63,909 nt of DNA, filler included, from Stramenopiles sp. TOSAG23-6 (GCA_900128565.1; 26 parts of 26 records of this genome joined end to end with filler, not necessarily neighbours in it); one strand, 5' to 3'. Positions 1 through 63,909 are shown, counted from the whole stretch's first letter. Program-made: numbers and translations. The notes: generated from the sequence alone by a model not told the origin.

Positions 1-37
1 AAAAAAAATTCGAAATTGAAAAAAAAATAAAACATAC
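1..37 (-). mobile_element. Introner-like intron, 5' part (contig ends inside it)
   Basis: Minus strand reads CCAT|GTATGTTTTATTTTTTTTTCAATTTCGAATTTT, the family 5' consensus. Confidence 0.8.
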
Positions 38-1118
38 ATGGCTTCGTCATTACTTCTGATTCTTCTTCTGATTCTGGTGTAATTGTAGAAAATTTTTTAA
101 GTACGCGTATAAAGACTTTGACAGGATTAGAAAAACATTTAAGCCTTTCAAATCGAAGTATCGCCCCATCTTTGACTTGTGTCTCTTCGTCAGAGCCTTT
201 CCACCCAAAATAGGTTTTTTGAATTTTTTCGTCAAACTCTATTTTTTGACGCTTGTCTGCTTTCTCATTCAATATCACTGCATTTGCAAAAAGTTTCTGC
301 CAAAAGCTTGAGTTACAGTTACATTCCATTAGAAAACTGGAATGCCAAATATAATTTGGATAGAATTCAATAGCCGCTTTTAAAACGGTCTCATTTCTAA
401 CCCCTCCAGGTGGATAATTCTTTTTTTTGTGAGGCAACTTTTGAACACGAAATAGTTGGAACTTTTCACTNAGACGCAGACGCAACGAAGCGTCGTCATA
501 TATGTCTGGATACAATTCCATCGCTGCAAACATCACATCAGGATCATCATTCCATTCCCCCTCAATAAGCATATATCTTACATCCTTAATAGTACTTCTA
601 TCTTTAGCTTTCTGCGTATATCTGAAGGATACTTCACCTNTGGGACTGCCAAGTTCTCGTATTTGTTGTAATACTTCATTTTTCTCATCTGAAAATTCAG
701 TTTCCTCGCCAAATACGACATCAAATATTTCAGTAACTCTCGAAAAGTCTTTAGTTGCCCTTAAACGATCAGAAGCATACAAAGAAAGTATTGGTTCAAT
801 CTTCATCGCTTCCATCATAAAATCAGCATCATCAAAAAAACGGCAGAAATCAGTAAAAATAGCAAAAGATGTGTCTTTTGCTTCTAGCCACTGAGGAGTC
901 AAAGAAAACATTCGCTTAAGTTCATCAAGCAAATCTCTCTGACTTTTAGATAAACGAGCACTTTGTGGAACCGGGAGAGAAAGAGCTTCAGTAGTTATGT
1001 CAGTGGATGCTTTAGTAGACTCAACTTGAGGCTCTGGAGAAGCATCTTTGGTATCTGCAGCGAGTGTACTAGTTGATAAAACAAAACATATCATCATGGT
1101 TGAGAGTAATCTTATCAT
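38..1118 (-). CDS. Secreted hypothetical protein, first exon (MIRLLSTMMICFVLSTSTLA...)
   Basis: Both ends translated by hand: ATG at 1118 with a hydrophobic N-terminus, and a phase-consistent end at the intron at 37. Absent from the ORF track, consistent with no stop before the window edge. Confidence 0.65.
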
Positions 1119-1366
1119 TATGCTTCGCCTTATGGCTTGGGTCCTTTATCTTTGACTCGCGTTTTAGTTTTTGACTTTTTGTACCTTAAGACAAAAGTGA
1201 AAGTTGCTGGATGACGCGCTGAATGCATCAGGTGCAAAAAACTGAACCCGATGACACGTGGCTAAAAATCCAAAAATCTTTTGACATGGCGGAGAAGTCG
1301 GAGTTAACGAACTGTTGCTATCAGGAACACATAATATAACACACAAAACTAGCAAAAAAACTGCAC

Positions 1367-2379
1367 ATGGTCACTCGAATGGCATCATCAATTGTGTGGT
1401 TTAGAAAGGGATTGCGTCTGCATGATAATACTGCATTATTGCAAGGTATTTCTGGCGCCAAACATACCGCTTGTGTATTCATTCTTGACCCACATTTTTG
1501 TAAACCTAAATATGTGGGGAAGAACAGAATGGCTTTCCTCCTAGAATCGCTCGTGGAACTTGATGATCTTTTACAAAGTAACTATCAGACACGACTAATT
1601 GTTTTGAGGGGGAAACCTGAAAGAGTGCTTTCGAAAAAGGTAAAGGAATGGGGAGTAAATAAAGTATCCTTTGAAATGGATACTGAACCATATGCACGAC
1701 GACGCGATAAGACAGTCACCTTGTCTTTGGAAAAAGTTGGTGTGGAAGTTTGTTGCACAAGTGGACATACTCTTTATGACATGGAAAAGTTATTTGCTCT
1801 CAACAAAGGCNTAACGCCCACTACAATGCGAAGTTTTCAAAAGCTTCTTCAGAAGGCAGGTCCCCCGGATAAACCTAAAAATGCTCCTTCTTCAATCCCT
1901 ACCTTACTCCCAGAAATTGATTATTCTGAAGAACTTCATGGAGTACCGACACTTAAAAGTTTAGGATACTCTACCCCTGCAACAACCCCATTCAAAGGTG
2001 GCGAATCTGAAGGTCTGCGAATGATGGAAGCTTTTATAAAAGATAAAAAACGTGTCATCAATTTTGAAAAGCCGAAAACGTCNCCAGCGGAACTTTATCC
2101 AAAAATATCAACTACTGGCCTATCACCCTATATGAAATTTGGTTGCGTATCTGCACGAAAATTTTTCTACAGATTAGACAAGATACTTTCAAAGAACAAG
2201 AAGCATACGCTACCTCCTGTTTCCCTTGTTGGGCAATTGTATTGGCGAGATTTTAATTATTTAGTCGCAAGTACAACACCAAACTTTGATACTATGAAAG
2301 GAAATCCTCGTTGTCGGCAGATTCCTTGGGTTCAGAATAAATCTAATCTTTCAGCATGGGAAAAAGGAGAAACGGGTTT
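1367..2379 (+). CDS. (6-4) photolyase / cryptochrome family, 3'-truncated
   Basis: WFRKGLRLHDN, FKGGESEGL, TTGLSPYMKFGCVS, SLVGQLYWRDF, CRQIPW and AWEKGETG motifs. Confidence 0.92.
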
Positions 2380-2423
2380 NNNNNNNNNNNNNNNNNNNNN
2401 NNNNNNNNNNNNNNNNNNNNNNN

Positions 2424-2435
2424 TTAATTAATTAA
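2424..2435. other. Artificial contig linker TTAATTAATTAA flanked by N runs (25 copies, roughly every 2.45-2.48 kb)
   Basis: Same all-frame-stop 12-mer between N runs at 2424, 4903, 7380, 9852, 12323, 14792, 17261, 19730 ... 61509. Confidence 0.98.
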
Positions 2436-3291
2436 NNNNNNNNNNNNNNNNNNNNNNNNNNNNNNNNNNNNNNNNNNNNTATACTATCAAGATTTTGTTT
2501 TTTTTCAAAATTACCAACACTTTTTTTTGATCCTTTTTAAGCTTTTTCAGCTCTTTTTCGGATAACTGGGATTCTGGCTGAAGCACATTTCTAACTGAGA
2601 CTTTTGTTTCCATTCCACTTTGAGTCTCCCTCAAAGAGATAGGGTTCTCTACGCTATTCTTCGAATTAGAAATTTTGCTACCTTGCTACACGCAATACTC
2701 AGACTGTCTAATCTTNNNNNNNNNNNNNNNNNNNNNNNNNNNNNNNNNNNNNNNNNNNNNNNNNNNNNNNNNNNNNNNNNNNNNNNNNNNNNNNNNNNNN
2801 NNNNNNNNNNNNNNNNNNNNNNNNNNNNNNNNNNNNNNNNNNNNNNNNNNNNNNNNNNNNNNNNNNNNNNNNNNNNNNNNNNNNNNTATACTATCAAGAT
2901 TTTGTTTTTTTTCAAAATTACCAACACTTTTTTTTGATCCTTTTTAAGCTTTTTCAGCTCTTTTTCGGATAACTGGGATTCTGGCTGAAGCACATTTCTA
3001 ACTGAGACTTTTGTTTCCATTCCACTTTGAGTCTCCCTCAAAGAGATAGGGTTCTCTACGCTATTCTTCGAATTAGAAATTTTGCTACCTTGCTACACGC
3101 AATACTCAGACTGTCTAATCTTTATAAAAAAATCGTACTTAAAAGGTTTCTGAGTTCCCGATGGTTCAGGAGTTGAGAGCCTGTTCTCTTCTCTCGCCCG
3201 CATCCGCAATATCCGCATCGTACCGAAAGAAGAAGAAAAAAAGGACTTCTTTTTTGTTCAAAGTAGGCGGGTAGTTTATACATTGTATAGT

Positions 3292-3868
3292 ATGGCAGAT
3301 AAAGCTAAAGAATGGGAAGAAACTCAGCGCCTCATGGCGGAACGGAGAAAGGTGAATGCTGAAAAACGTAGAATACAATCACAAAAGAATAGAGGGATTG
3401 AACAACGTGGCTCTGCTATGCAAAATTCAATGTATCCTCCTTCAGGGGCACCTCGTGCTCGTGGTCGTGGTCGTGGTCGAGGTCGAGGTCGAGGTCGTGG
3501 CTTCAGTCGATATAATTCAGGTCCGCGTCCTCAACAGTATCGGCCCCCCCCAAAAGAGCGGCAGTCCTTACAAACATCCTCAGCAGCAAACAGGCTACAA
3601 TTCTAATAAAGCTGACTTTGCGAGAATGGAAGCCCTACAACAGAACATTGACGATTCTATTTCGGATGATTTATTGACCGCTGCAAAGGCTGCAGCAGCT
3701 AATAGTAAAAGTTCAGCCAGCGAATGGGAAGAAACACAGCGCAAGATGGCTGCACGAAGGGCGGAAAAAAAAGAGCAGCGGCGATTACAGTCTTTAAGGA
3801 ATGAAGAAATTGTTGCACGAATGGCTGGTGGGGCCGGATGTTATGGGGCGAATAATCCATATGCTTAA
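3292..3868 (+). CDS. Small RG-rich protein with two EWEETQR repeats; apparent frameshift at C8 run
   Basis: EWEETQRLMAERR lies in one frame and EWEETQRKMAARR in the next; (RG)n tract; frames join at CCCCCCCC 3544-3551. Confidence 0.6.
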
Positions 3869-4102
3869 AAATGATCTTTATTCTTAAAGGGGAAAATTTT
3901 TTATGATTTTTTTGTAAATAAAATTATGTTACCCGGTAACATGTATTTGGAACCGTTTATTCTTAGCTAACGTCTTTGGCACTTGGGTAAGACTTAGTGT
4001 GTACCACTTTGGGCTTGCTCTATAAGGTTATGTGGTGGTATTTCCCAAAAATCTGTTGAAAATCACTAGATTATACGCATATTTCAACAACAGTGCTATA
4101 TA

Positions 4103-4858
4103 ATGAGTGGAAGTGCCCAAATGAAAGACGGTGAATTGAAAAAATTTCTCTCTGATATGGGAATGCTTGAATTCGTATATGGTGAGAAAAATGGATCTAT
4201 TAGGAAAGAAATTGGCAGCGAAAAATTCAGAATATGGGACCAGAAAACCTCAATGTGGTTAGACTATAACAAAAATGATGAAAACGAGAGTCATAGTGCT
4301 AAAAAGTCGACTTCACTAGAAGAAAGCACAAAGAAAATAGAGGCTCTATTGGCTAAACATAAACAACAAAAAAAGTTTCAAAAAGCGAAGAAACAACTAT
4401 CATTAGCCGCGTCTACAGTGGCAATTTTTCGTAGGAAAGACAAGACTCTTTGTGAGCCACCAGAGAAAACAAAAGAATCCGGTATAAACAATATAACCAA
4501 TATAAAGCTAAAAAAACTCGAACCTAGAAAACGAAAGAAAAAACAAACTGAAATCCAGCCAGAAAATTCTCAGGTTGAAAGATTTTTGCTTGCAGATTCT
4601 CTCTGGAATATTATAGAATTTATGCACAGTAGGTATATTGATAAACAATGTAGTTTCAATGGAATAGTAGTGGATCATACTTGTGGTCCTAGTAGTATCA
4701 GAGACAATCAAGCAGATATAGAATTTAAAACAAAAGAATCTGATATATGTGAAACAAATTTTGAAAAAAAACAAAATCTTGATAGTATAGAAAATCATGA
4801 AATGCAAAAAGTATCAAAAAAAAGTGTTGGTAATTTTGAAAAAAAACAAAATCTTGAT
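4103..4858 (+). CDS. Hypothetical Lys-rich protein, 3'-truncated
   Basis: Long ORF; repeated NFEKKQNLD. Confidence 0.55.
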
Positions 4859-4958: not shown

Positions 4959-4990
<32 letters not shown>

Positions 4991-5048
4991 GTATGAAATT
5001 TTGTACCTAACAATTTTTTTTTTTTTGAAATATTTTTTCATAATACTT

Positions 5049-7846: not shown

Positions 7847-8494
7847 ATGGGACTTTCTATTGCAAAGCTGTGGGATTCGTGGGCTGGATTAGGTGGTTCA
7901 GAATGTGGTATCTTAATGGTTGGTCTTGACGCAGCTGGTAAGACGACCATCTTATATAAGTTAAAGTTGGGGGATGTGGTCTCGACCATTCCTACAATTG
8001 GTAAGTTTCTACATCAAACACTCTTTTTGTAAAAAGTAGTACATCAGTATGGTAACATTGCTAATATAAAGTATTATTTTATATTATATTTCCACATTAT
8101 AGGATTCAACGTAGAAACTGTTCAATACAGGAACATCAAATTTAATGTATGGGATGTCGGAGGACAAGATAAAATTCGACCACTTTGGCGTCACTACTAT
8201 AAGGGTGTCAGTGGTGTAATCTTTGTCGTTGACAGTAACGATGCAGCTCGTTTTCCTGAAGCAAAGAAAGAATTGGAGATAATGCTAAGTAAAGAAGAAT
8301 TACTCAAAGATGTGGTCGTATTGGTTTTTATAAACAAACAAGATTTACCCAAGGCGAAAAGTCCTCAAGATGTTGTCAGAGCATTGGGTCTAAATAAAAC
8401 ACGTCAAAAATGGTGGGCCCAAGCATGTTGTGCGACAACAGGTGATGGTTTATATGAAGGTTTAGATTGGTTATCGAATGAATTGAAAAATTGA
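7847..8494 (+). CDS. ARF: ADP-ribosylation factor family GTPase (exons 7847-8000, 8103-8494)
   Basis: MG start, [53 protein letters not shown]. Confidence 0.95.
8001..8102 (+). other. Canonical GT-AG spliceosomal intron, unrelated to the repeat family
   Basis: GTAAGT...GCTAAT...TTATAG; removal restores PTIGFNVE. Confidence 0.95.
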
Positions 8495-8877: not shown

Positions 8878-8982
8878 TTATCTTGCTTTCTTTCGTTGTC
8901 TATCGGATGGTGGTCGTACATCATGTATTGTGAAAAAAAAAATGGACATTTCAAAAAAATCGTTAGGTACAAAATTTCGTAC

Positions 8983-9032
<50 letters not shown>

Positions 9033-9751
9033 AAATTGGATGAAAACGTACATCGATTATTCCCAAAGCTCCAATACCTAAATCAGAGTCTTCTGAAGTA
9101 TAATCATCTTCTTCATCACTACTTGCATCATTTTCATACATTTCTTCTTTATTAAGAGATAAAATATCGACCATAACTTTTTGAGTTCGATTACCCTGAA
9201 AAAATGATGATGTATTTGTGACTTCTTCTATTTGCTTTTTTTGTCTCTCTTCTGATAAATCACGCCACAAGTATTGTGAAACAATATTTCAGAAATTTAA
9301 AATTCAAAACAAATCGTTAGGTACGAAATTTTCTCCAAAAAAAAAATAAAAAAATAAAAAAATAAAAAAAATAAAATAAATTAATAAATTCATGATGAAA
9401 ACGTACAACTTCTCACGAAGTATTTGTCTATCTGCTTTTGTCTTTAACAACCATTTTTTTAATCTTCTCGAATGATTCGGATCACTAGAGAGTTTTATAT
9501 ATTTTGGTTGTTCTTTCATCCATTTTGTTATTAATACATTTTTTGCATTACGTACATCATTTGCTTCATAATAACGAATTAATTTTCCATCTTTTGAAAT
9601 TTGTGAACCATCTCTCGTGACTACACAATAAGCATTTAAACGACTTCCTTTAGCATTATCAACCATCTGACACGCGGATTGCTTTGTGCTAGAGAGTATA
9701 ATACAAGGCTGTCCCAAACGACCACGTGAAAAGTCTTTTGCGATAGGATGA
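8878..9751 (-). CDS. Hypothetical protein, last three exons (9751-9407, 9268-9052, 8922-8878)
   Basis: Frames join on removing the family introns (REKL|WRDL; IID|DVRPP). Confidence 0.7.
8923..9051 (-). mobile_element. Introner-like GT-AT intron
   Basis: GAT|GTACGTTTT...TACGAAATTTTGTACCTAACG...CACAATACAT|GAT. Confidence 0.8.
9269..9406 (-). mobile_element. Introner-like GT-TT intron
   Basis: AAGTT|GTACGTTTT...TTTCGTACCTAACG...CACAATACTT|GTGG; removal joins ORFs 9304-9717 and 8878-9270 in frame. Confidence 0.8.
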
Positions 9752-9907
9752 ATGTATTTTGGAAAAATATTTCAAAAAAAAAACTTAAATTTGTTAGGTA
9801 CAAAATTNNNNNNNNNNNNNNNNNNNNNNNNNNNNNNNNNNNNNNNNNNNNTTAATTAATTAANNNNNNNNNNNNNNNNNNNNNNNNNNNNNNNNNNNNN
9901 NNNNNNN

Positions 9908-10956: not shown

Positions 10957-12224
10957 TTATTTATCTATATCTATTTCAATAATATTCCTGTTGGATAATT
11001 TTTCTACATTTGTACCTAAAACTTCTATACCTTCTTTTTTTGCATCTAAATCTACATAACCATCAAGAAAAGCAGCCGGGGCGGTACATAAACTGTAGGG
11101 AAATATATCAAATTGTTTTTTTATTAGGTTATAAAAGTTAGGGTTTTCTAGTAAAAAAAATCAAAATTTGAATTTTTATTAGGTTATAAAAGTTTTTCTA
11201 GGTAAAAAAAAATCGAAATTTGAATTTTTGAAAGATGAAAAATACCTGGTCCAAATTCGTTAGGCATACAATATAAAAAATAAAACGTACAAGAAGTTTC
11301 ACAGAGTCGTTTTGCGATACATCGAATGTAGTGTTGAGCGATTTTATCATACCATTGTATTGCTTTTTTTTCTATTTGGAGTAATTGGATACATATATCG
11401 TGAAAATGTGAAAAATGAAAAATAATATTAGGTATATCATTTTCTATGATTTTTTTTTTTTTTTAAATTTATCAAAGAGTAACGTACATGTATTTTGTAA
11501 AAATATTTCAAAAAAAAAAAAAATCTAAAAAAAATTGTTAGGTACAAAATTTACTATAAAAAATAAATTCGAAATTGAAAAAAAAAAAAACATACATTCA
11601 GATCTTAATTTGAAATCATTACAAGATGTTCCAATACCAATTTCTCCTAAACACGCAGAATAAAAAGATGGACATAAAAAATTATTATTATTATTATTTG
11701 TGAAATCAATGATGCCTTTATTTCCAGGAGGGTCATGAGGGTTAGGGTTATTTGTAGATAACAAAACAGGAGGGTTAGGGTTATTTGTAGATAACAAAAC
11801 AGATTCTTTGAATAACCCAGAATTTATGACACAGCCACCAGACATTAGTAAATATTGTAATAGTTTCTCTTCACGTTTACGGTGTTCTTTACCCGCAATT
11901 TCAGATTCTTGTTGAGCTTGAATTAGATCTCTGGCATATTGAGCATTTGCTCTTCGTTTCGCAAGCCAAGTATGTATTATGAAAATATATATATTTTAAA
12001 AATTGTTTGTTAGGTACAAAATTTACTACAAAAAAAAAAAAATTAAATTTTGAAAACCTACATGTGCATCTATAGGTTTCCCATCATTTTGTTCGAGACC
12101 CAGTAAAGATTCAGTAACTGTAAAACCTTGAGAGATTAGATATTTATAACTATCTGTTTCTCCCCATCGTTTCATCTGTTTATTTTTAATTGTTTCTTGA
12201 GAAATTTGTGAACTTGAACTGACT
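10957..12224 (-). CDS. UBA-like domain protein, 3' exons (12224-12062, 11971-11596, 11392-11291, 11087-10957)
   Basis: Spliced frame is open: LISQGFTVTESLLGLEQNDGKPIDAH|TWL (UBA-like) ... RSEC|IQLL ... ETSC|TAPAAF...K*. Confidence 0.7.
11088..11290 (-). mobile_element. Long, possibly composite GT-AT intron
   Basis: GTACGTTTT start, several CCTAA motifs, CTACAGTTTAT end; AT end gives the longer open last exon. Confidence 0.6.
11393..11487 (-). mobile_element. Degenerate Introner-like GT-AT intron directly abutting 11488-11595
   Basis: GTACGTT...TACCTAAT...CACGATATAT|GTATCC. Confidence 0.7.
11488..11595 (-). mobile_element. Introner-like GT-AT intron
   Basis: GAAT|GTATGTTTT...AAATTTTGTACCTAAC...GAAATATTTTTACAAAATACAT. 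Confidence 0.8.
11972..12061 (-). mobile_element. Introner-like GT-AT intron
   Basis: CAT|GTAGGTTTT...TTGTACCTAAC...CATAATACAT|ACT; removal restores DAH-TWL. Confidence 0.8.
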
Positions 12225-12378
12225 ACGTATTGTGAAAAAATATTTCAAAAAAAAATCGTTAGGTACGAAATTTCGTATNNNNNNNNNNNNNNNNNNNNNN
12301 NNNNNNNNNNNNNNNNNNNNNNTTAATTAATTAANNNNNNNNNNNNNNNNNNNNNNNNNNNNNNNNNNNNNNNNNNNN

Positions 12379-12818
12379 CAAAAAATACAAAAAATACAAA
12401 AAATACAAAAAATACAAAAAATACAAAAAATACTAAAAATGTTGTTGAAACTCAAACAGAAAATACAAAAAAGACAAAAAAGATTGTTGAAACTCTCACA
12501 GAAGAAGAATTACAAAGTGTTACAGATTTGCGGCTACAAAATATTGTTGATATGTTACTGGAGAAAGAAGAGGCTCTTATGGAAAATCATAAAAACTTCA
12601 TGCAAGAAAATTCTACTTTTCTAATAGAGGAGGACGCCCTTTTGGCAAAGGTTAATGGTCAAGATGTCGAAGACTACGCCATTGATGAATATGTAGTTCG
12701 CCTTGATGAAATTCTGCAACGTCGTATGAAAATGTGCAAATCACTTCATGAACAATTACGAGACTTCCGTGAATCATTGGCTCAAGAGGAAGAAATAAAC
12801 GCAGGAAGTTTACAGTGA
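12379..12818 (+). CDS. Kinesin-13-like C-terminal coiled coil, 5'-truncated
   Basis: EEALMENH...EEDALL...IDEYVVRLDEIL...LRDFRESLAQEE resembles the kinesin-13 tail; preceded by a CAAAAAATA 9-mer repeat. Confidence 0.65.
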
Positions 12819-14645: not shown

Positions 14646-14747
14646 ATGTATTTTGGAAAAATATTTCAAAAAAAAAATCTAAAAAAAATGTTAGGTACAA
14701 AATTTCGTATGAAAAAAAAATCGAATTTGAAAAAAAATAAAACATAC
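14646..14747 (-). mobile_element. Introner-like GT-AT intron (copy at 17115-17216)
   Basis: GTATGTTTTATTTTTTTTCAAATTCGA...TACGAAATTTTGTACCTAAC...TTCCAAAATACAT; followed by a short terminal exon. Confidence 0.8.
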
Positions 14748-19348: not shown

Positions 19349-19631
19349 CCACAGAAAGAACGTTTTGAAGATAATACAGCTTTTATTGGCACCAACAGCT
19401 CTTGTCACAGCGCCTCAATGAAATTTTATAATACTAGATTGAATTATGCTTACAAAAACAACAATATTTATACAATTTTATTTGAAGAATCATTTCATAA
19501 TAAAATTTAATTTTAATTTCGAATTTTGTTTTTACTATGATTTTTCGTACCTAAACATTTCTTTTTTTTTAATATGTCTTCGTTTTCACAGCAACGACAG
19601 GAGCTTTACCATCTGCGTGGGACACGACCAT

Positions 19632-19685
19632 ATGTATTTTGGAAAAATATTTCAAAAAAAAATCGTTAGGTACAAAATTTCGTAC
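19632..19685 (-). mobile_element. Introner-like intron, 3' half (contig end)
   Basis: GTACGAAATTTTGTACCTAACG...TTCCAAAATACAT. Confidence 0.8.
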
Positions 19686-20541: not shown

Positions 20542-20625
20542 ATAACGAGGAGAAAAATAATCTGAAAGTATGCCAACAATATTTGCCTTTACTTTTTTTA
20601 AACTAAAAATAAAAATTGTTTTATA

Positions 20626-37196: not shown

Positions 37197-37536
37197 ATAA
37201 GTCATACAAGATCCGTCAGGTCTTTGAACCAATTTTTTGTTATTTCCCTCTTCAGGACACGATGGATACCATGTATTTTGGAAAAATATTCTACAATTAA
37301 ATTCGTTAGGTACAAAATTTCGTATGAAAAATAAATTCATAGTTTAAAAAAAAAATATAAAACAAACATGGAGCTTTATCTGTTCCAGTACCTGTTTTTA
37401 TCATTGTAATATGCACTTTACCTGAATCGTATAAAAATATTTCAAAAATGTTAAATGGATTAGGATTTTAAAAAAAAAAAAAAAAAAAATTTTACAAAAA
37501 AAAAAAAAAAAATTTTTTTAAAAAAAAAAAAAAAAA

Positions 37537-39659: not shown

Positions 39660-39999
39660 ATAAGTCATACAAGATCCGTCAGGTCTTTGAACCAATTTTT
39701 TGTTATTTCCCTCTTCAGGACACGATGGATACCATGTATTTTGGAAAAATATTCTACAATTAAATTCGTTAGGTACAAAATTTCGTATGAAAAATAAATT
39801 CATAGTTTAAAAAAAAAATATAAAACAAACATGGAGCTTTATCTGTTCCAGTACCTGTTTTTATCATTGTAATATGCACTTTACCTGAATCGTATAAAAA
39901 TATTTCAAAAATGTTAAATGGATTAGGATTTTAAAAAAAAAAAAAAAAAAAATTTTACAAAAAAAAAAAAAAAAATTTTTTTAAAAAAAAAAAAAAAAA

Positions 40000-41968: not shown

Positions 41969-44323
41969 ACTCATGCGCGATATTCTCAGATATAAAAAAT
42001 ATCATTACAATAGTGAAAAGAATTCAAGCAATTGTTGTAGAAACACCACACAAACAACTTATTAAATGTCTTTGCGTCGACTTGTCGAAACAACTCCATA
42101 TTTTTACACTCTTGATGCAGCGTGGCAAGCAATAAGTACTGGAAAGTCGGCAAATATCTCTTCTTTTATTTCGTCTGTTGTTTCAATATCTCCAAATGAT
42201 CGAATTAATATGTGGCTCAATAAAAGTGGTGCGTATGATCTCGCCGCTGCGTCAAATGCTTCAGAGTCTCTATCGACTAACTCAGATTTTAGTGATTATT
42301 ACAATCATCTTCGAACTTTGAGTATCAAACAGCTACCTCTGCAACACAGCAAACGTACACAGTTACACAAAACACAAAGCGAACATAACCCTACTAATGA
42401 TGAAATTTCCACAGAGTCAAAAACAGACACTACCCCTAACCCTAATCCCCGAAAATTAGTANGAGAACAAATTGAACGAGATATCAGAAGAAGTGGTGTT
42501 ACTGGAGGTCTTGTTGAAGTTCTCCGTCGTGTATTATTCGCCTACGTAGAACGTAATCAAGAAGTTGGTTATAGTCAAGGNATGAACTTTCTTGCTGCAC
42601 AATGTCTTCATATAAAAATGTCAGAAGANCAAACATTTTGGGTTCTCTCTGGTTTGATGTACGTTTTCATAACCCTAACCCTAATTTCCCTAATTTCATT
42701 TTTTTTTTTTTATAGTACATGTTGTACCTAACAATTTTTTGTAACAAAAGAAAAATTCACAATACATTGAAAAAATCCTAGGAATTGATTTTTTTGATAA
42801 GGATTTGACTGGTGTATTGGTAGACTGCGCAGCGTGCACACANATATTACATACTAAATATGANTGTTTACTGTCAAAATTTGAGACGTCNCACATNCCN
42901 TTATCTGGGATTTTAAGTAATATGTTAATGTCTTGTCTGACAAATGTTGTACGTTTTAGTTTTTTTCAATTTTTATCTAAATTTNTTTTTCGTACGAAAT
43001 TTCGTACCTAACAAAAAAAATTAAAAAAAGAAAATATGTTTTCACAATATATGTTCCGACTGAATTATCAATTATATTTTGGGATTTTTGTTTTATTATT
43101 GATTTCAGAATTTTTTCTTTTTCAGTTGTGGTTACATTTTTTGATGCAATTTCTGGTATTATATATTCACCTCTACGTTCATCTGATATACGTGACAAAT
43201 TTTTAAGTGATGACAATTCAAAACATTCAAATTCAAAACATTCAAAACATTCAAATTCAAAACATTCAAAACATTCAAAACAGTCAAAACATTCAAAAAC
43301 AATTGAAAATAACATTGTGGATGATGATTTTGTACTTGTAGCTGAAAAACCCATAGANGATGATCATGTACTATCAACATCACCTGATATTATATTGTTT
43401 GAAATATTGAAAAAATGGCGTAATGTAAAAGTAAAAATTCACAAGTTGAACAACCCTAACCCTAATGAGAGTGAACACGTCCGACTTGATGAAATGAGCC
43501 ATTCAATTATTCTTGAGTCTCTTCATCATATTCTCTCATATAAAGATGACAAAGGAAAATTAATGTTATCTACTCATAGTATTCATCAATGTAGAGAAAA
43601 AGCTTTCATTGAAGTCAATTTATCAAAGAAAGTACACGAAATCAGTCAAAATAATTTTCAACTCTCTCANTTAGGCTATTTGGAATCTATTCGCACAACN
43701 TTACTATCTGCTCGACGTGGTATCACTTCACCAATATTGTTTACAGCATCTTCATTTTATTTACAACATCATTGTAATGTCATTGAAAGGATTAATAAGT
43801 TGTTACTATTAATTAAAGAGTTGCATCCTTTTATGAATCAACATGATACAAACACAAACAGGTTAGGTTTTTTTTGTATGTCCAATGTTGTAAATGATGT
43901 AAATGATGATGTAAATAATTCTACTGGTAGAAAAACAAAGTATGAGAATACATATAATACACCAATATGGAGTGGTGGCTGGAGTTGTTGTGAAGAAGAA
44001 AAGTTATTAAAAAATATTGCTTCAACAATATTTTCAGTGTCAACTATTTCATTTCACTCGGAACCATCAGAAATTCAAAATGTGGATCATCAAAAAAAAA
44101 ATTCTGAAAATTTTAAATTATTGGAAGACATGAAAAAAGAATTGTTACAGATATCACAATTGATTGAAAAAGTCATAACAGCTGCACCAGTGTATAGATT
44201 ATTAACAACTATTGAAGAAAAATTTACCAACACATCTGTAAACCCNAACCCTATAAAAACTAGTCGAACTGTAAACCCTAACCCTATAAAAACTAGTCGA
44301 ACTGTAAACCCTAACCCTATAAA
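41969..44323 (+). CDS. Rab-GAP TBC domain protein (exons ..42658, 42768-42948, 43053..), truncated
   Basis: QIERDIRRS, LRRVLFAY..RN.EVGYSQ.MNFLAA, FWVLSGLI|EKIL, NV|VPTELSIIFWD. Confidence 0.85.
42659..42767 (+). mobile_element. Introner-like GT-AT intron containing (CCCTAA)2
   Basis: TGAT|GTACGTTTT...TGTACCTAAC...CACAATACAT|TGAA. Confidence 0.83.
42949..43052 (+). mobile_element. Introner-like GT-AT intron
   Basis: GTT|GTACGTTTT...CGTACGAAATTTCGTACCTAAC...CACAATATAT|GTT. Confidence 0.83.
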
Positions 44324-46878: not shown

Positions 46879-46931
46879 TGTACCTAACAAATTTTAGTTT
46901 TTTTTTTTTGAAATATTTTTCCAAAATACAT
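46879..46931 (+). mobile_element. Introner-like intron, 3' half (contig start)
   Basis: TGTACCTAAC...GAAATATTTTTCCAAAATACAT. Confidence 0.8.
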
Positions 46932-47993: not shown

Positions 47994-48091
47994 AAATATT
48001 GTGAAAAAATATTTTTGGTCAAAAAAATCGTGAGGTACAAAATGTTACATGAAAATAAATGTAGGTAAAAAATTCAATTTTGGAAACATAC
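47994..48091 (-). mobile_element. Introner-like GT-TT intron
   Basis: CTT|GTATGTTT...TTTTGTACCTCACG...CACAATATTT|GTATGC. Confidence 0.7.
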
Positions 48092-49176: not shown

Positions 49177-49461
49177 GTGTATTTTGGAAAAATATTTCAA
49201 AAAAAAAATCGTTAGGTACAAAATTTCGTACGNNNNNNNNNNNNNNNNNNNNNNNNNNNNNNNNNNNNNNNNNNNNTTAATTAATTAANNNNNNNNNNNN
49301 NNNNNNNNNNNNNNNNNNNNNNNNNNNNNNNNAAAACAAAATGTAAAAAAACAAGCAAAACGATAATATTTTTCGTATGAAGTTTTGAACCATTACACTT
49401 AATCCCACAATCGTTAGGATCGATAAAATCTCAATCAAACAACTTAAAATCAGTAAAACCT

Positions 49462-51628
49462 ATGATGAAGCAAGAGAAAAGGACAAATAGGGACAAGGAA
49501 AAGCAAATACTCGTCAGTAACACGAACAACAATTTACACTTTGATGGTTCGTCAACACTCGATAATAAAGACGCAACCATACACAAATCTTCAACATCTA
49601 GAATAGCCGTGGAAGATTCACTTTTGGCAAGACATAAAATAAAACAATCTAGACTTGAAAAGCTTCGACAAGAAAAAGAAAACGCTGAACTAAATCTCTG
49701 TCAACCTCAACCAAAACTAAACAAAAAATCACTTCAAATAGTGGCAAAACGAAATCGAAAAAGTATTGTAGAGCGTAGCCAGTCTTTTATAGAGAAGCGT
49801 CAACGAAATAGAGATTCAATGAAGCATGCACAACAACTGAAAGAGTTATCACAACTAAAAAGTGCACCAACAATAAATAAGAAATCACAGAAATTAGCTG
49901 GTAAAAGAGGATTAGAATCTCAAAAAATATGGCTTTTGAAACGTGATGAAAAAGTTCGCCAAAAAAAACAAATGCTTCAACACAAAGAAGAAAAGAAATG
50001 TGAAAAACCGGAACTCATGAATAAGCACTCTAAACATTTGGTACAAAAAATGCGTAGTCAAAGTAATCAAGACTATCAGTCAGAAGACGTTGCTGAGAGA
50101 TTGATGAAAAAAGGTCAAGAATATGAAATAAAACGTCAAAAAAAAGAAAAAGAGGAGGAAAATCGTGAAAAATGAAATTCATATCCTCGAATAGATGTAC
50201 GTTCAGCTCGATATCAGAGACCTAATCGTGAAGTGCCTATTATTCAAACTAATAATACTACCGAAGCTGATGTCGAGACACCAACAAATCTTGGGATACG
50301 TATGTATGTTTTATTTTTTTTCAAATTCGAATTTATTTTTTTCGTACGAAATTTTGTACCTAACGATTTTTTTTGAAATATTTTTCCTATATGGAAGCAA
50401 AGAAGAAAGATCAGGAAAATAAATTTCGGAGGGAAATCGAAAAGAACACAAAAAGCAATTTATCTCCGTCGGGTAATCAACTGTATAAACCAACAATAAA
50501 TACAAATTCTAGAAAATTAGCCATTGCACAACAAAAAAAACTTTTTCGTTCGATGTTGAATGAAAAAGTAAATATTCAACATTCATTAGGTACAAAAGTT
50601 AGTACGGATTCAATATCGGAGGTTTCAGAACAATCACAAATATTCAGAAAAAATGGTTCAAATCATACAACAAATAGTACCAACTTGGAAGCACCACATA
50701 CTCACTATTTTGGAAAAAATGGCCACCTAAAAGATGTCACAAATGTATGTTTTATTTTTTTTTCAAATTCGAAGTTTTTTTTCGTACGAAATTTTGTACC
50801 TAACGAATTGTTTTTTCAAATATTTTTCCAAAATACATAATGTACATCGATCAAATACTTCATTTCATTTTGAGGTACCTAAAAGAGAGGTACCCAAAAG
50901 AATCAATACATCAATCATCACAGAATATGGAGTAGTACCACCACCAATATCTTTTACGATGCATTCATCCAATAATGACCATTCAAAAACATCAAAAAGT
51001 TTTCTTTATAATCAACTTAAAGAGAGATTGAATCGTCGTGATTATAATGATTATATAGATGATTTTTCAAGTGTAAAGATTTCAGTCGAGGATCGTTTAG
51101 CTGCAAAGGGAAGCGAATATAAAAAAAGGCGAGAAATGCGTATAAAAAATAAAGTACAACATCAAATTGAGTTACAACATCGAACTATTAAATCTAGACA
51201 AAACATAGTGGAGCCTAATTATACAGATCTTAATAAATCAAAGAAAATAATAATAAATAATAATGGGTCAAATGCTTTAGATACTACCGTAAATGATGAA
51301 ATATTGATGAGCTCATTGTCTCGATTGACTCGACCCATTGGTCATATAAAATCAAATACATTAAAAACTATAAAGATTCCATCATTTTCACCTGAATTAA
51401 ATAAAAGATCAATTAAAATTTGTCAAAATCGAAATTCAGAAAATATAAAGAAAAAACACGAATTTAATTGTATGCATAATAATGATGAGAAACAAATCAA
51501 AAAGAAAAAAAATGGACATAAAAATCTGACGACTTTTGATAAACAACAAAAATGGCTTGAACAAAAAAAAAAAAATACTCTAAAACTGAGACATCAAAGG
51601 GATGCGAAAGTGTATGCAGAATGTACAT
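49462..51628 (+). CDS. Basic coiled-coil protein with P.IN..S repeats (introns 50304-50392, 50745-50838, 51629-); in-frame TGA at 50173
   Basis: QPKLNKKS, APTINKKS, YPRIDVRS, KPTINTNS, SPELNKRS lie in one spliced frame. Confidence 0.7.
50304..50392 (+). mobile_element. Introner-like GT-AT intron
   Basis: AT|GTATGTTTTATTTTTTTTCAAATTCGA...CGTACGAAATTTTGTACCTAACG...TTCCTATAT|GGAA. Confidence 0.75.
50745..50838 (+). mobile_element. Introner-like GT-AT intron (near-consensus copy)
   Basis: AAT|GTATGTTTT...CGTACGAAATTTTGTACCTAACG...TTCCAAAATACAT|AAT; joins ORFs 50373 and 50734 in frame. Confidence 0.88.
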
Positions 51629-51781
51629 GTATGTTTTATTTTTTTTCAAATTCGATTTTTGTTTCGTACGAAATTTTGTACNNNNNNNNNNNNNNNNNNN
51701 NNNNNNNNNNNNNNNNNNNNNNNNNTTAATTAATTAANNNNNNNNNNNNNNNNNNNNNNNNNNNNNNNNNNNNNNNNNNNN

Positions 51782-56521: not shown

Positions 56522-56573
56522 GTATGTTTTATATGAATTTCTAATTTAATTTTTTTTTCATACGAAATTTCGT
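56522..56573 (+). mobile_element. Introner-like intron, 5' half (contig end)
   Basis: GTATGTTTTATATGAATTTCTAATTT...CATACGAAATTTCGT. Confidence 0.8.
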
Positions 56574-58925: not shown

Positions 58926-59119
58926 TGTAATAGTAAAATATAAATAGTATGATCGATCGTCAGTGGCAATCTAAATCAAAAGTCTGCTATTTTTTTGACC
59001 ACTCATTTGATTTTGGTTTNNNNNNNNNNNNNNNNNNNNNNNNNNNNNNNNNNNNNNNNNNNNTTAATTAATTAANNNNNNNNNNNNNNNNNNNNNNNNN
59101 NNNNNNNNNNNNNNNNNNN

Positions 59120-59172
59120 TACAAAATTTCGTATGAAAAAAAAATTGGAATTTGAAAAAAAATAAAACATAC
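59120..59172 (-). mobile_element. Introner-like intron, 5' half (copy 61565-61617)
   Basis: AAT|GTATGTTTTATTTTTTTTCAAATTCC...CATACGAAATTTTGTA. Confidence 0.8.
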
Positions 59173-59670
59173 ATTTGCTGCCTGAAACAGTGGATCCGCA
59201 TCTTCTAAACCTGCTCTTATCCATTGATCAATTGCTTCTGCAGTACATTTTTCTGGGACGTCTAATAATGATATTATGGAAGCACCCTTAAAATTTACAT
59301 CCATTTGAGCATCCTGTTCAGAATATTTTTCTGGTTTCATGAAAATGGAGTATAAAACAGGTTCCTTTATACATTTTGTTGCCCATTCATGTGGAAAGAG
59401 TATGGTCCCATTGGGATCTTGGATATAATAACTTCGACATTCAAATATAGAGTCGATATTTTTTTGTAGCAATCGCGTTCGAGGAACCCTTTTGATTGTT
59501 TCTGGTTTGTCATGTACACCTATTCGTATCAAGTGCATTGCAGCTGGATTATTCTTTTGTGGATCTTTTACGACTTCTTCCTTTCGGTTGAATTCAGGTT
59601 TTTTAAATTCAGGCATTTTTTCTGGTGGAGAGGGTGGGGGTTTATAGTCCATCCCCTTTGGAGCTGCCAT
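59173..59670 (-). CDS. Hypothetical protein, first exon
   Basis: Open frame from ATG 59670 to the family intron. Confidence 0.65.
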
Positions 59671-60068
59671 TTTAAAAGAATGTAAACAATTTAAGTTTCT
59701 GTGACCTTTGAGTGTAGTACCTATATGTAGAATGCTATTCTTTACAAAATGAAAAAGAACACGGACGTTGAAATATTTAACGGAAAGAAACTGTCACTTT
59801 ACTACTACTCAGTATAAATACTTTTTAATTACTACGTAGTAGCGTCCTAACTGTGGTAGTAGTCCATATTACCGCATGCATCTACTACATATTCAATAGC
59901 TCATATTTTGATAATGCAATATTCTTAAAGAGACATGACGTTTTTTGTTTGCATTGGTGCTTGTTCATTACTTGATTAAGACGAAGACGAAACATCAGCC
60001 CTGTTTTATGCAATAGTTTACAATTTTATAATTTTGTGTTGAAGCAAAAGGCTAAAATAAACAGTCAA

Positions 60069-61384
60069 ATGAGTTACAGGAAAAAAGATAAAAATAATCA
60101 AACACAAACTATTTTGACAAAAAAATACACAGTTGGTCACAGAAATCCTTCCAGAACTCGAACATATCGACCTGCCAGTGCGCCACTTAGACGATTCAAT
60201 CCTCAGTCACCTAAAAGAATACAAAAAGATGCTCGAAGCATACACAAAGATGCTCGAAACATAAGTACAAATAGTCAGTCGCCACGTACACATACACGCA
60301 ATCGCCCACCAAGACTACTCAAAGGCAATACAAATAGCAGAGTTGCGTGGGCATCATCAAACTTTGGTGCAAGAAAATGGAGAGCTTTGAAGGGAAATAG
60401 TAGATTTAGTTTTGTAAAAAATGTTCGCAGTCAGTGCTTTCGCCAAAGAGACGGGTTGAAAAATTTCAAAAACAAACCAGCTACAAAACAAATAGTACAA
60501 CAGAAGAAATTAGTTGATACATTTGATAACATTTCTCCATCTGCGTCAGGTATTTCGGATCACTCTGTAGATTTTATGAATTTTGGTGTACAGAGTACTC
60601 ACCTAACCCCTAACCCTAGAGCGATAGATAAAGATTCATACAATCGTACTCATATACCAGCGAATAGAAAACCGATATTAGTTGTTAAAAATCCCTTGGA
60701 AAATATTTCCACCAAAATCAACGACCCAAAAAAGACAATAAATTCCGTGAAATATAGTCATAGTACTCATTGCATTAGTACTGAAAATTCGAATGAGACA
60801 AAAACCGCTATTGTAGCTCCACCACATTTAATTACAAATGATAACATATGTAGTTTCATGGATAAAAAAATAGATAATACACAAATCATCATGCCTTCAA
60901 AATCAAACTATATACAACATCAACTAAAGCAAAACGAGGTTCAAGAAAATGTAAAACGTCAAATACAAATACGTCAATCAATAGAAGAAAACAATTTATT
61001 GTGTCAATCAAGCACAAAATATGAAAAACAAGAAAAGAAACGAGTAATTATAAAAAATACCCATAAAATACGTATAAAAAAGCAACAACGAGAAAAAGAA
61101 TTGGCAAGTCTACGCGCAATTATTCAACCATTATCATCATCAAAACCGTTTACTGGTACTGGATCTTTGCATTTTTATAAATTGGGAAAAGTACTTGGTC
61201 AAGGTTCATTCGGGTGTGTACGCCTTGCATCCCATAGACTTACAGGTACTAAAGTTGCAATAAAAACATATGATCGAGATCAATTTCAAAATTGTTCAGT
61301 GCAAGCTTGGGCACAAGTTCAACGCGAGTTCCGCCAAGAAGCTGCCATTCTATCGACTATAAAACATCGAAGTATCGCAAGATT
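60069..61384 (+). CDS. CAMK-group (MARK/SNF1-like) Ser/Thr kinase with long basic N-terminus, first exon
   Basis: YKLGKVLGQGSFGCVRLA.H.LTG.KVAIK, EAAIL..IKH..I.RL. Confidence 0.85.
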
Positions 61385-61464
61385 ATATGTTTTATATGAA
61401 TTTCTAATTTAATTTTTTTTTCATACGAAATTTCGTACCTAACGAATTTTTTTTTGAAATATTT
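61385..61464 (+). mobile_element. Introner-like intron beginning AT instead of GT, truncated (copy 63830-63909)
   Basis: AGATT|ATATGTTTTATATGAATTTCTAATTT...TACGAAATTTCGTACCTAACG; otherwise matches the copy at 56522. Confidence 0.78.
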
Positions 61465-61564
61465 NNNNNNNNNNNNNNNNNNNNNNNNNNNNNNNNNNNN
61501 NNNNNNNNTTAATTAATTAANNNNNNNNNNNNNNNNNNNNNNNNNNNNNNNNNNNNNNNNNNNN

Positions 61565-63909
61565 TACAAAATTTCGTATGAAAAAAAAATTGGAATTTGA
61601 AAAAAAATAAAACATACATTTGCTGCCTGAAACAGTGGATCCGCATCTTCTAAACCTGCTCTTATCCATTGATCAATTGCTTCTGCAGTACATTTTTCTG
61701 GGACGTCTAATAATGATATTATGGAAGCACCCTTAAAATTTACATCCATTTGAGCATCCTGTTCAGAATATTTTTCTGGTTTCATGAAAATGGAGTATAA
61801 AACAGGTTCCTTTATACATTTTGTTGCCCATTCATGTGGAAAGAGTATGGTCCCATTGGGATCTTGGATATAATAACTTCGACATTCAAATATAGAGTCG
61901 ATATTTTTTTGTAGCAATCGCGTTCGAGGAACCCTTTTGATTGTTTCTGGTTTGTCATGTACACCTATTCGTATCAAGTGCATTGCAGCTGGATTATTCT
62001 TTTGTGGATCTTTTACGACTTCTTCCTTTCGGTTGAATTCAGGTTTTTTAAATTCAGGCATTTTTTCTGGTGGAGAGGGTGGGGGTTTATAGTCCATCCC
62101 CTTTGGAGCTGCCATTTTAAAAGAATGTAAACAATTTAAGTTTCTGTGACCTTTGAGTGTAGTACCTATATGTAGAATGCTATTCTTTACAAAATGAAAA
62201 AGAACACGGACGTTGAAATATTTAACGGAAAGAAACTGTCACTTTACTACTACTCAGTATAAATACTTTTTAATTACTACGTAGTAGCGTCCTAACTGTG
62301 GTAGTAGTCCATATTACCGCATGCATCTACTACATATTCAATAGCTCATATTTTGATAATGCAATATTCTTAAAGAGACATGACGTTTTTTGTTTGCATT
62401 GGTGCTTGTTCATTACTTGATTAAGACGAAGACGAAACATCAGCCCTGTTTTATGCAATAGTTTACAATTTTATAATTTTGTGTTGAAGCAAAAGGCTAA
62501 AATAAACAGTCAAATGAGTTACAGGAAAAAAGATAAAAATAATCAAACACAAACTATTTTGACAAAAAAATACACAGTTGGTCACAGAAATCCTTCCAGA
62601 ACTCGAACATATCGACCTGCCAGTGCGCCACTTAGACGATTCAATCCTCAGTCACCTAAAAGAATACAAAAAGATGCTCGAAGCATACACAAAGATGCTC
62701 GAAACATAAGTACAAATAGTCAGTCGCCACGTACACATACACGCAATCGCCCACCAAGACTACTCAAAGGCAATACAAATAGCAGAGTTGCGTGGGCATC
62801 ATCAAACTTTGGTGCAAGAAAATGGAGAGCTTTGAAGGGAAATAGTAGATTTAGTTTTGTAAAAAATGTTCGCAGTCAGTGCTTTCGCCAAAGAGACGGG
62901 TTGAAAAATTTCAAAAACAAACCAGCTACAAAACAAATAGTACAACAGAAGAAATTAGTTGATACATTTGATAACATTTCTCCATCTGCGTCAGGTATTT
63001 CGGATCACTCTGTAGATTTTATGAATTTTGGTGTACAGAGTACTCACCTAACCCCTAACCCTAGAGCGATAGATAAAGATTCATACAATCGTACTCATAT
63101 ACCAGCGAATAGAAAACCGATATTAGTTGTTAAAAATCCCTTGGAAAATATTTCCACCAAAATCAACGACCCAAAAAAGACAATAAATTCCGTGAAATAT
63201 AGTCATAGTACTCATTGCATTAGTACTGAAAATTCGAATGAGACAAAAACCGCTATTGTAGCTCCACCACATTTAATTACAAATGATAACATATGTAGTT
63301 TCATGGATAAAAAAATAGATAATACACAAATCATCATGCCTTCAAAATCAAACTATATACAACATCAACTAAAGCAAAACGAGGTTCAAGAAAATGTAAA
63401 ACGTCAAATACAAATACGTCAATCAATAGAAGAAAACAATTTATTGTGTCAATCAAGCACAAAATATGAAAAACAAGAAAAGAAACGAGTAATTATAAAA
63501 AATACCCATAAAATACGTATAAAAAAGCAACAACGAGAAAAAGAATTGGCAAGTCTACGCGCAATTATTCAACCATTATCATCATCAAAACCGTTTACTG
63601 GTACTGGATCTTTGCATTTTTATAAATTGGGAAAAGTACTTGGTCAAGGTTCATTCGGGTGTGTACGCCTTGCATCCCATAGACTTACAGGTACTAAAGT
63701 TGCAATAAAAACATATGATCGAGATCAATTTCAAAATTGTTCAGTGCAAGCTTGGGCACAAGTTCAACGCGAGTTCCGCCAAGAAGCTGCCATTCTATCG
63801 ACTATAAAACATCGAAGTATCGCAAGATTATATGTTTTATATGAATTTCTAATTTAATTTTTTTTTCATACGAAATTTCGTACCTAACGAATTTTTTTTT
63901 GAAATATTT
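61565..63909. repeat. Duplicate of contig 59120-61464
   Basis: Same sequence and ORFs, offset 2445. Confidence 0.97.

Follow-up and report, generated by a model that had tools for sequence, protein, structure and literature searches.

The window analysed here, a 63,909-nucleotide stretch of DNA from Stramenopiles sp. TOSAG23-6 (GCA_900128565.1), contains a family of short repeats that interrupt unrelated protein-coding genes and, where the evidence permits a reading, are removed from RNA as introns that mostly end in AT and not in AG. We consider it probable, at roughly three chances in four, that these are introners, that is, copies of a short non-coding mobile element, similar to a miniature inverted-repeat transposable element (MITE), which becomes a spliceosomal intron when inserted in sense orientation in a gene. 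What we regard as the new element relative to known introners is the pairing of a canonical 5′ half with a non-AG 3′ splice site that appears to derive from a target duplication and is used precisely. The family thereby bears on how new introns arise and on how the splicing machinery locates the end of an intron.

A repeated family with three conserved blocks

The window consists of 26 contigs of 2345-2379 bases each, joined end to end via N44-TTAATTAATTAA-N44 spacers. Four of these are duplicates (contig 7 of 6, contigs 16 and 17 of 15, and contig 26 of 25), leaving 22 unique contigs with 44 unique ends and approximately 52 kb of unique sequence, a sample with nearly no intergenic DNA. A core motif of 22 bases gave 32 matches at up to three mismatches, compared with 0 in 100 shuffles, and a profile built from nine copies returned 47 hits; an earlier reading of the sequence alone had proposed such a profile for the full assembly and reads, and the scan reported here covers the window. 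With copy ends delimited by eye and by script, we recognized 41 clear unique copies in 15 of the 22 unique contigs, consistent with the more than 40 copies first noticed; 23 are complete (89-138 nt) and 18 are cut by a contig end. The duplicate contigs contribute five additional copies, and at least five further relatives are degenerate or expanded (Table 1).

The family has the layout GTAYGTTTT - T tract - CGTACGAAATTTYGTACCTAAC - T tract - AAATATTTTTYCAMAATAC followed by 2 nt. In the alignment, conservation is concentrated in three blocks with variable T/A tracts between them: the copies open with GTAYGTTTT, carry TTTCGTACGAAATTTYGTACCTAAC centrally and close with AAATATTTTTYCAMAATAC and two further bases. 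A branch-point-like CTAAC sits within the highly conserved TTTYGTACCTAAC and is followed by a T-rich tract; its distance to the cut varies between about 32 and 60 nt among the copies read. The TTTYCA of the 3′ block, in contrast, is fixed, with its A approximately 9 nt from the intron end, such that the cut holds a constant position relative to this block.

Pairwise identity over shared columns averages 0.73, and the best pairs, which come from different genes on contigs 10 and 21, reach 0.91-0.93. The similarity extends past the signal blocks (e.g., TTCAAATTCGAATTT). The same window holds an ordinary intron of 102 bases in an Arf gene (contig 4; G^GTAAGT...TTATAG^GA, where ^ marks an exon-intron border), which the family does not resemble. 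Identity of up to 93%, removal from RNA and a 2-nt repeat (both described below), together with this difference from a GTAAGT..AG intron, bear out the original view of an introner-like family spread over unrelated genes. The recent spread that was also proposed is supported only in part: the mean identity indicates that much of the family is not young.

The whole element forms a loose palindrome around CGTACGAAATTTCGTAC. Its right arm, which includes CTAAC, is nearly invariant, whereas its left arm decays through changes that have no compensation in the right arm, a pattern suggestive of selection acting on a linear branch signal. We had entertained a conserved RNA fold and dropped it on account of this uncompensated variation. 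RNA folding was weak in the eight copies evaluated (z scores of -4.2 to +0.5); at the ends, only GUAU and AUAC can pair, in a helix of 3-4 bp with no compensatory changes, and the termini mirror each other in GTAT/ATAC and T/A runs only. An Rfam scan of the window returned no family.

The copies account for 6.8% of the unique bases, yet 18 of the 44 unique contig ends fall inside a clear copy (19-20 if two degenerate ones are counted), an excess with a binomial probability of 2e-10. This agrees with the earlier estimate of about 19 ends and indicates that the family breaks the assembly, which explains its fragmentation into pieces of about 2.4 kb. The very high copy number that had been proposed is supported indirectly, by 41 copies in 52 kb and by a seawater DNA metagenome (X1) in which 7362 contigs match a 1.9-kb stretch of the window at ≥93%, a figure that is not a copy number. 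Summed depth in X1, which is not a copy number either, was 1e4-1e5 in intron bins compared with 3-9 in exon-only bins; these values are only a sign that thousands of copies are present in the X1 community. Elsewhere, the exact core motif was found in a single JGI metagenome contig (L001), where a sense copy (ACAT^GTATGT..ATACAT^GG) is followed by a GTAAGT intron, and was absent from the viral contigs searched.

Copies are removed from RNA as introns

A CaMKK-like kinase gene on contig 10 carries 12 copies within 1.2 kb of coding sequence, while neighboring genes have exons of 400-500 codons. Excision of its ten internal copies by one rule, from the G of GTAYGT to two bases beyond ..TAY, produced a single open frame of 395 codons across 10/10 junctions. 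This frame carries a glycine loop and an APE motif, and its exons match positions 56-84, 112-147 (E=2e-12) and 177-208 of the Pkinase profile in collinear order. Exons of 340-500 codons occur in many genes of the window, and the family has therefore piled up in some genes and is absent from others.

The pattern holds beyond the kinase gene. After excision, each flank of the junction stayed open for 30 codons or more in 16/23 complete copies read in sense, compared with 4/23 read in antisense; the seven sense misses adjoin very short last exons, Ns or a neighboring intron. Copy strand was also the gene strand for 17/17 copies in hosts that could be named by Pfam (two kinases, RPA70, TBC and DUF4116 proteins), in line with the coding-strand orientation first described. 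Some hosts named at that stage fared less well: Pfam found nothing to support the CPSase, GT47 or acid phosphatase assignments, and among the long open reading frames (ORFs) beside copies, 17/18 had no family at E≤0.5 beyond chance-level hits. The host called RPA1 is indeed a replication protein A, more precisely its 70 kDa subunit, RPA70.

We then compared X1 with polyA metatranscriptomes (X7-X9) mapped on positions 22253-24149; these are contigs and not reads, and parts of this region without RNA cover are uninformative in either direction. All three junctions covered by RNA were joined as predicted, with both the length and the place of the skip matching (Table 1); the one-base offset of the skips arises because a G is present on both sides. 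Three DNA contigs (X1 records 1, 6 and 8) cross exon-intron borders of the same gene unbroken. The ratio of intron to exon depth was as high in the RNA run as in the DNA run, and retained introns are indistinguishable from DNA carry-over.

A fourth junction is provided by homology. Excision of the RPA70 copy at 34808-34904 yields KAP^WYPSCPEEGNNKK, which matches KGPWYPACPEEGNNKK of the homolog P0001. The expanded degenerate relative in the same gene (34964-35233) is in frame only if the cut falls 2 nt after ATAC, and use of an AG 5 nt downstream of the cut would yield a stop. The intron status of the remaining copies rests on reading frame alone. Taken together, these data support the family copies being introns that are removed from RNA.

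Three further observations concern individual loci. RPA70 appears to be short of about 45 residues that are present in P0001 and P0002 before the KPDY strand (their ~411-455), and the DNA at this place consists only of T/A runs within the expanded intron 34964-35233. On contig 8, a degenerate plus-strand copy (19490-19590) lies between the GAS8 stop codon (~19346) and the last exon of a convergent minus-strand gene; it ends TTTTCACAG, has no GTAYGT start, and overlaps the minus-strand gene at its 3′ end, including the stop codon, making it the only copy seen outside coding-sequence introns. Finally, a weak antisense match to the core (nhmmer E=0.002; 50561-50608, minus strand) falls inside a plus-strand exon (50393-50744) that reads ..SLGTKVSTD.. 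and may be an old antisense insertion turned coding, or a chance match.

Non-AG 3′ ends and a 2-nt repeat

Among the 32 copies in which the 3′ end is present, the last dinucleotide is AT in 23, TT in 5, AG in 2, GT in 1 and AC in 1. The AT majority of the sequence-only reading thus stands, while its individual counts (21 AT, 4 TT and 3 AG of 28) gave way on recounting. The kinase intron I3, one of those with an exact RNA join, illustrates how far such an end is from a canonical one. Its sequence reads ..AAGCTT^GTATGT....TTTTTTCACAGTACTT^GGTCAAGG.., and sliding the boundary permits only the pairs CT-TA, TT-AC, TG-CT, GT-TT and TA-TG, none of which is canonical. A CACAG located 5 nt upstream of the cut is skipped, and its use would put the exons out of frame and abolish the glycine loop. 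AGs are found between CTAAC and the cut in at least eight copies. AT-ending copies can also be read as AT..AC introns. However, the two AG-ending copies differ from ACAT or ATAT by one T-to-G change at the same place, and one copy starts with GC, the usual variant of a GT 5′ end; these features favor, but do not prove, a cut just ahead of the G and another just behind the final T.

The last two intron bases tend to repeat the last two exon bases. In a set of 24 complete copies (the 23 of the window and that of L001), the two dinucleotides were identical in 18/24, compared with 12.1 for permuted pairs (p=0.0003). The locus-specific signal was located at position -2 (20/24 vs 14.5 expected, p=0.003), and the permutation test on these 24 copies gave no locus-specific match at -3 to -6 or +1 to +6. 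All of the complete TT-ending copies (4/4) sit after an exon that ends in TT, and the empty site reads WT^G, with W denoting A or T. This match between exon end and intron end looks like a 2-nt target-site duplication.

Longer duplications were evaluated and rejected. A 3-nt duplication (WTG) would account for the G that follows the intron in 17/24 copies, but this G shows no locus-specific match and the termini would then cease to mirror each other; longer candidates suggested by three copies (ATGCAC, TTGTATG and ATGTA) were not supported by the permutation test. Protein searches for the junctions of two copies with mismatched repeats (contig 13 exon and kinase exon 2) found no transcript-derived match; the cut may remove either the element with the right repeat or the left repeat with the element.

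Proposed origin and alternative explanations

In the scenario that we favor, an element would bring along a strong 5′ site (GTAYGTTTT), the branch-like CTAAC, a T-rich tract and the 3′ block AAATATTTTTYCAMAATAC, features that can be read in the sequence. It would insert at the DNA level at WT^G and duplicate a 2-nt target that is mostly AT and sometimes TT. Splicing would then take out the element together with one copy of the duplication and restore the mRNA exactly, which is why the intron ends in AT or TT and not in AG; exact removal is here based on RNA at three junctions, on homology at one and on reading frame at ten. The 3′ cut would presumably be set by the conserved 3′ block, and neither by an AG nor by the distance from CTAAC, and antisense or unspliceable insertions would be lost, in keeping with the selection for a spliceable orientation that the sequence-only reading reasonably inferred. 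The many copies break the short-read assembly.

Several points weigh against this scenario. No transposase or longer autonomous copy was found by Pfam in the approximately 52 kb of unique sequence (40 long ORFs), so a longer copy encoding a transposase, for which the sequence-only reading had suggested looking, is lacking there. The mirrored termini are too short for a clear terminal inverted repeat (TIR); published introner screens require TIRs of at least 6 nt (bioRxiv 10.1101/2022.06.06.494994; this and all other papers are cited for the portions of their text available to us). Position -1 is T in nearly all copies, which leaves one position alone to carry the locus-specific signal, and the 2-nt repeat is missing in 6/24 copies. 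With a mean identity of 0.73, much of the family is not young. RNA support comes from three introns of one gene, from contigs and not reads, and all three have a matching repeat; moreover, the three RNA joins are not among the 15 of 353 joints that were listed, and joined forms may also be present in the DNA run. Lastly, how a spliceosome cuts after AT or TT is unexplained.

On this last point we can offer a tentative and rather doubtful proposal, namely that the spliceosome of this organism ignores AG for these introns and cuts at a fixed place past the 3′ block whatever the last two bases may be. Two versions can be envisaged, a major spliceosome freed from AG dependence for one intron class, or a second transposon-driven minor-type expansion, after that of Physarum, in which the signals co-evolved. 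If cutting were AG-free, a transposon with a 2-nt duplication would be removable without a scar.

The minor-type version leads to the first alternative, which we judge unlikely: a divergent minor (U12-type) spliceosome would process the same mobile family and measure the 3′ cut from a branch point in the TTTYCA block, leaving the last two bases free to vary. Such a mechanism would be consistent with the variable 3′ dinucleotide, the upstream AGs that are ignored, and a cut that keeps its spacing to the 3′ block while its spacing to CTAAC varies. The 5′ site, conserved over 9 nt, is one position from the Physarum U12-type GTATCTTTT, and Physarum offers a precedent for a massive U12-type expansion with a proposed transposable element origin (bioRxiv 10.1101/2020.10.12.336362). 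The same 5′ site, however, is a classic major-type GTAYGT in which the CC of RTATCCTT is missing, with G and T instead, and C occupies +4 in about 40% of copies. When we looked for the U12 branch motif TTCCTTRAY near the 3′ end, the best branch-like motif was TACCTAAC, about 32-60 nt from the end in the copies read and followed by a T tract, which is the layout of a major-type intron; the A of TTTYCA lies 9 nt from the end. TT ends are also outside the U12 boundary types listed in the Physarum preprint.

An alternative that dispenses with DNA transposition is also improbable in our view. Here the excised intron would reverse-splice into transcripts at WT^G and return to the genome through reverse transcription and recombination, as has been proposed for fungal introner-like elements (bioRxiv 10.1101/2022.06.06.494994). 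This route would suit a family whose copies are all sense and in genes, whose TIR is short, and for which a transposase was not found. The donor's own last two bases would travel with it, however, and the complete TT-ending copies all follow TT exons (4/4; p=0.0003 for the repeat overall), which argues against this route.

We regard it as very unlikely that the copies are old, immobile introns that look alike since the spliceosome of this lineage demands long fixed signals. The three best-conserved blocks do correspond to the 5′ site, the branch region and the 3′ end, and the palindrome decays in its left arm while the branch arm is fixed. Nevertheless, similarity past the signal blocks (TTCAAATTCGAATTT), of up to 93% over the whole length and between unrelated genes, is not accounted for, and neither are the locus-specific 2-nt repeat, the ordinary GTAAGT..AG introns of the same genome (Arf and L001), or the 12 copies per 1.2 kb of coding sequence set against 400-500-codon exons in neighboring genes. 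Ciliate-like DNA elimination, in which RNA joins would reflect a rearranged somatic genome, would fit short, AT-rich segments bounded by short direct repeats and excised precisely, but it is scarcely credible given that the segments are kept in independent DNA metagenome contigs (X1 records 1, 6 and 8), that the joins were found in polyA RNA runs, that spliceosomal 5′ and branch signals are present, and that the genetic code is standard and the nearest relatives are stramenopiles.

Comparison with known intron families

The introner origin thus remains the reading we prefer, and the closest parallels come from introners that bring a 5′ site and take their 3′ AG from a 3-4 nt duplication, such as IE1 of Micromonas pusilla and a Chrysochromulina family (PMC11282704; bioRxiv 10.1101/2022.06.06.494994). 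As described there, these are likewise short non-coding repeats that serve as introns in unrelated genes, in sense orientation and in marine protist hosts, and they are removed together with one copy of the duplication to restore the mRNA. Their duplication supplies a canonical AG, whereas here it comprises 2 nt (WT) and gives AT or TT ends; the TIR is also minimal here, in a comparison of the families by description and not by sequence. Surveyed introner families have canonical GY-AG ends, and AG is found in 2/32 copies of the present family.

Precise splicing at non-GT/AG ends is described for MITE-derived introns of Fritillaria borealis, which have a target-site duplication (TSD) and TIRs and in which the duplication likewise forms the 3′ site (PMC11282704). 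In that account the 5′ end is also non-canonical (AG-AC and AG-AT), as it is in most Fritillaria introns, whereas our family has a textbook GTAYGT 5′ site and coexists with ordinary GT-AG introns. Amoebophrya (Syndiniales), another marine organism, has repeated introns with direct repeats over the exon-intron borders and terminal inverted repeats, and no general transposase is reported in the text available (PMC7789003). The direct repeats of these introns are 3-5 nt and the inverted repeats 8-20 nt, without a common end signature or a U1-type 5′ site; the introns described here belong to a single family whose signals are fixed and whose repeat is 2 nt.

In Physarum polycephalum, where U12-type introns are massively expanded, GT-AT makes up 17% of non-canonical boundaries and the branch motif lies 10-12 nt from the 3′ site (bioRxiv 10.1101/2020.10.12.336362). 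The likeness includes a long fixed 5′ motif, a free 3′ dinucleotide with GT-AT among its forms, a motif held close to the 3′ end, and a proposed transposable element origin with a 2-nt (TA) duplication that recalls the 2-nt repeat seen here. The 5′ motif of Physarum is GTATCYTT, however, compared with GTAYGTTT in our family, whose branch and T tract are of the major type. In euglenids and marine diplonemids, nonconventional introns likewise have non-canonical ends, TSD-like repeats and intron ends that can pair, but they are described as being without U1 complementarity or a pyrimidine tract; intron ends are G/C-rich in hemistasiids, and nonconventional introns of Euglena are excised as circles (PMC11282704, PMC12621601). 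Our copies differ in their GTAYGT 5′ site and T tracts, and in end pairing that is weak in folding and confined to GUAU and AUAC.

We found no description of this family in the literature searched; the supplementary tables of introner surveys were outside this search, and a listing there is possible. A single-cell genome paper on marine stramenopiles (MAST) is silent on intron ends. A 2025 introner survey, as far as its available text goes, accepted AG and AC as 3′ ends and relied on annotation, and would have passed over a family of GT..AT introns in an assembly that is fragmented and unannotated.

Introners are the best-documented source of new introns, and in the families we have read about, within the texts at hand, the duplication builds a canonical AG. 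In the present case the 5′ site, branch point and T tract are all canonical, yet the 3′ end is made of whichever 2 nt were duplicated, and the RNA indicates that cutting stays exact although an AG lies 5 nt from the site. Should the same be true across the genome, the lineage would be a natural system for studying which features besides AG can specify where an intron ends; gene predictors based on GT-AG would mis-model most of its genes, and introner surveys built on GT-AG annotations would miss families of this kind.

Source organism and other features of the window

The window encodes ordinary eukaryotic genes that are readable in the standard genetic code, including by Pfam a photolyase, Arf, ARPC3, GAS8, CFAP141, YIF1, RPA70, TBC, an aminotransferase and two kinases. 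GC content is 24-40% per contig. The best relatives of a 500-residue exon of RPA70 are a EukProt protein (57% identity) and a Logan protein (52%), followed by proteins of Albugo, Pythium, Globisporangium, a Platysulcus-like organism and diatoms. As the nearest relatives are stramenopiles, the source, a low-GC marine eukaryote, looks like a stramenopile; a diplonemid origin was considered and dropped given that the nearest named RPA70 relatives are stramenopiles. Window DNA is present in public runs of three kinds: metagenomes and polyA metatranscriptomes, both from seawater, and small DNA runs labeled with the coded name "organism A".

Table 1 Family copies, comparator intron and RNA joins, in window coordinates. 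^ marks exon-intron borders.
Feature	Position	Strand	Remarks
Copy, 5′ part, ..AT^GTATGT	1-37	-	Cut by contig 1 start; host DUF4116 protein
Copy, 3′ part, ..ATACTT	4959-5048	+	Cut by contig 3 start
Arf intron (comparator, not family), G^GTAAGT..TTATAG^GA	8001-8102	+	
Complete copy, AT^GTACGT..ATACAT^GA	8923-9051	-	
Complete copy, TT^GTACGT..ATACTT^GT	9269-9406	-	Frame open 121/130 codons once excised
Copy, 3′ part	9752-9807	-	Cut by contig 4 end
Complete copy, AT^GTATGT..ATACAT^GT	11488-11595	-	
Complete copy, AT^GTAGGT..ATACAT^AC	11972-12061	-	
Copy, 3′ part, ..ATACGT	12225-12278	-	Cut by contig 5 end
Copy, first base = contig 6 end	14646-14747	-	Duplicate 17115-17216 in contig 7
Copy, 3′ part	19632-19685	-	Cut by contig 8 end
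CaMKK-like kinase gene	22253-24619	-	Contig 10; 12 family introns
Kinase introns, complete, first five	22478-22578, 22726-22822, 22959-23050, 23129-23234, 23331-23423	-	
Kinase introns, complete, other five	23482-23576, 23602-23699, 23820-23942, 24116-24229, 24288-24393	-	
Kinase introns cut by contig 10 ends	22253-22318, 24531-24619	-	
Kinase intron I3, TT^GTATGT..CACAGTACTT^GG	23820-23942	-	RNA join exact
RNA join, X7 record 9	23329 to 23423		93 bases skipped; intron I6 (23331-23423)
RNA join, X7 record 14	23818 to 23942		123 bases skipped; intron I3 (23820-23942)
RNA join, X9 record 23	22724 to 22822		97 bases skipped; intron I9 (22726-22822)
Copy, 5′ part	29652-29732	-	Cut by contig 13 start
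Complete copy, AC^GTATGT..AAACAT^AT	31382-31494	+	Repeat mismatched; frame open 194/174 codons once excised
Copy, 5′ part	31957-32015	+	Cut by contig 13 end
Copy, 3′ part, ..ATAAAT	32116-32174	+	Cut by contig 14 start
Complete copy, AT^GTATGT..ATACAT^AC	33635-33732	+	
Copy, 5′ part, AT^GTAGGT	34408-34479	+	Cut by contig 14 end
Complete RPA70 copy, AT^GTTTGT..ATACAT^GG	34808-34904	-	Duplicates 37271-37367, 39734-39830
Expanded degenerate relative in RPA70, TG^GTACGTTTT..GAAATATTTTTATACGA^TT	34964-35233	-	Read by eye against frames
Complete copy in TBC gene, AT^GTACGT..ATACAT^TG	42659-42767	+	
Complete copy in TBC gene, TT^GTACGT..ATATAT^GT	42949-43052	+	Repeat mismatched
Copy, 3′ part	46879-46931	+	Cut by contig 20 start
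Complete copy, TT^GTATGT..ATATTT^GT	47994-48091	-	
Copy, 3′ part, ..ATACAC	49177-49232	-	Cut by contig 20 end
Complete copy, AT^GTATGT..CTATAT^GG	50304-50392	+	Shortened 3′ block
Complete copy, AT^GTATGT..ATACAT^AA	50745-50838	+	Frame open 127/281 codons once excised
Copy, 5′ part	51629-51681	+	Cut by contig 21 end
Complete copy ending AG, AT^GTACGT..ATACAG^AA	54379-54477	-	
Copy, 5′ part	56522-56573	+	Cut by contig 23 end
Copy, 5′ part	59120-59172	-	Cut by contig 25 start; duplicate 61565-61617
Copy starting ATATGT after exon ..TT, second kinase gene	61385-61464	+	Cut by contig 25 end; duplicate 63830-63909

A number of other features are apparent in the window. Contig 12 (27187-29551) has the highest GC content (0.405), contains no family copies, and has a frame open for 100 codons on neither strand; it could be non-coding, frame-shifted or derived from a foreign organism. 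The gene on contig 14 has a lone in-frame stop (32472-32474) between two long ORFs of the same frame (32145-32471 and 32475-33473); possible causes are an error in sequencing, a very small intron or decay of the gene into a pseudogene. Contig 6 opens (12379-12440) with tandem copies of a 9-nt unit, CAAAAAATA, that read as KNT repeats in an ORF of 145 codons. The ends of contig 2 (2480-2538 and 4806-4858) are mutual inverted copies, 53 nt at 98% identity, with a further copy near 2893-2945; the arrangement resembles either an inverted repeat or a chimera formed in amplification or assembly.

Telomere-like AACCCTAA motifs are found repeatedly within introns and also at the end of a contig (42671-42690, 35192-35220, 44274-44323 and 5439-5500, and L001 2300-2345). 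There are 26 AACCCTAA/TTAGGGTT sites in the window, and the end of contig 18 is a tandem unit of them of about 33 nt; these motifs may represent a second repeat family.

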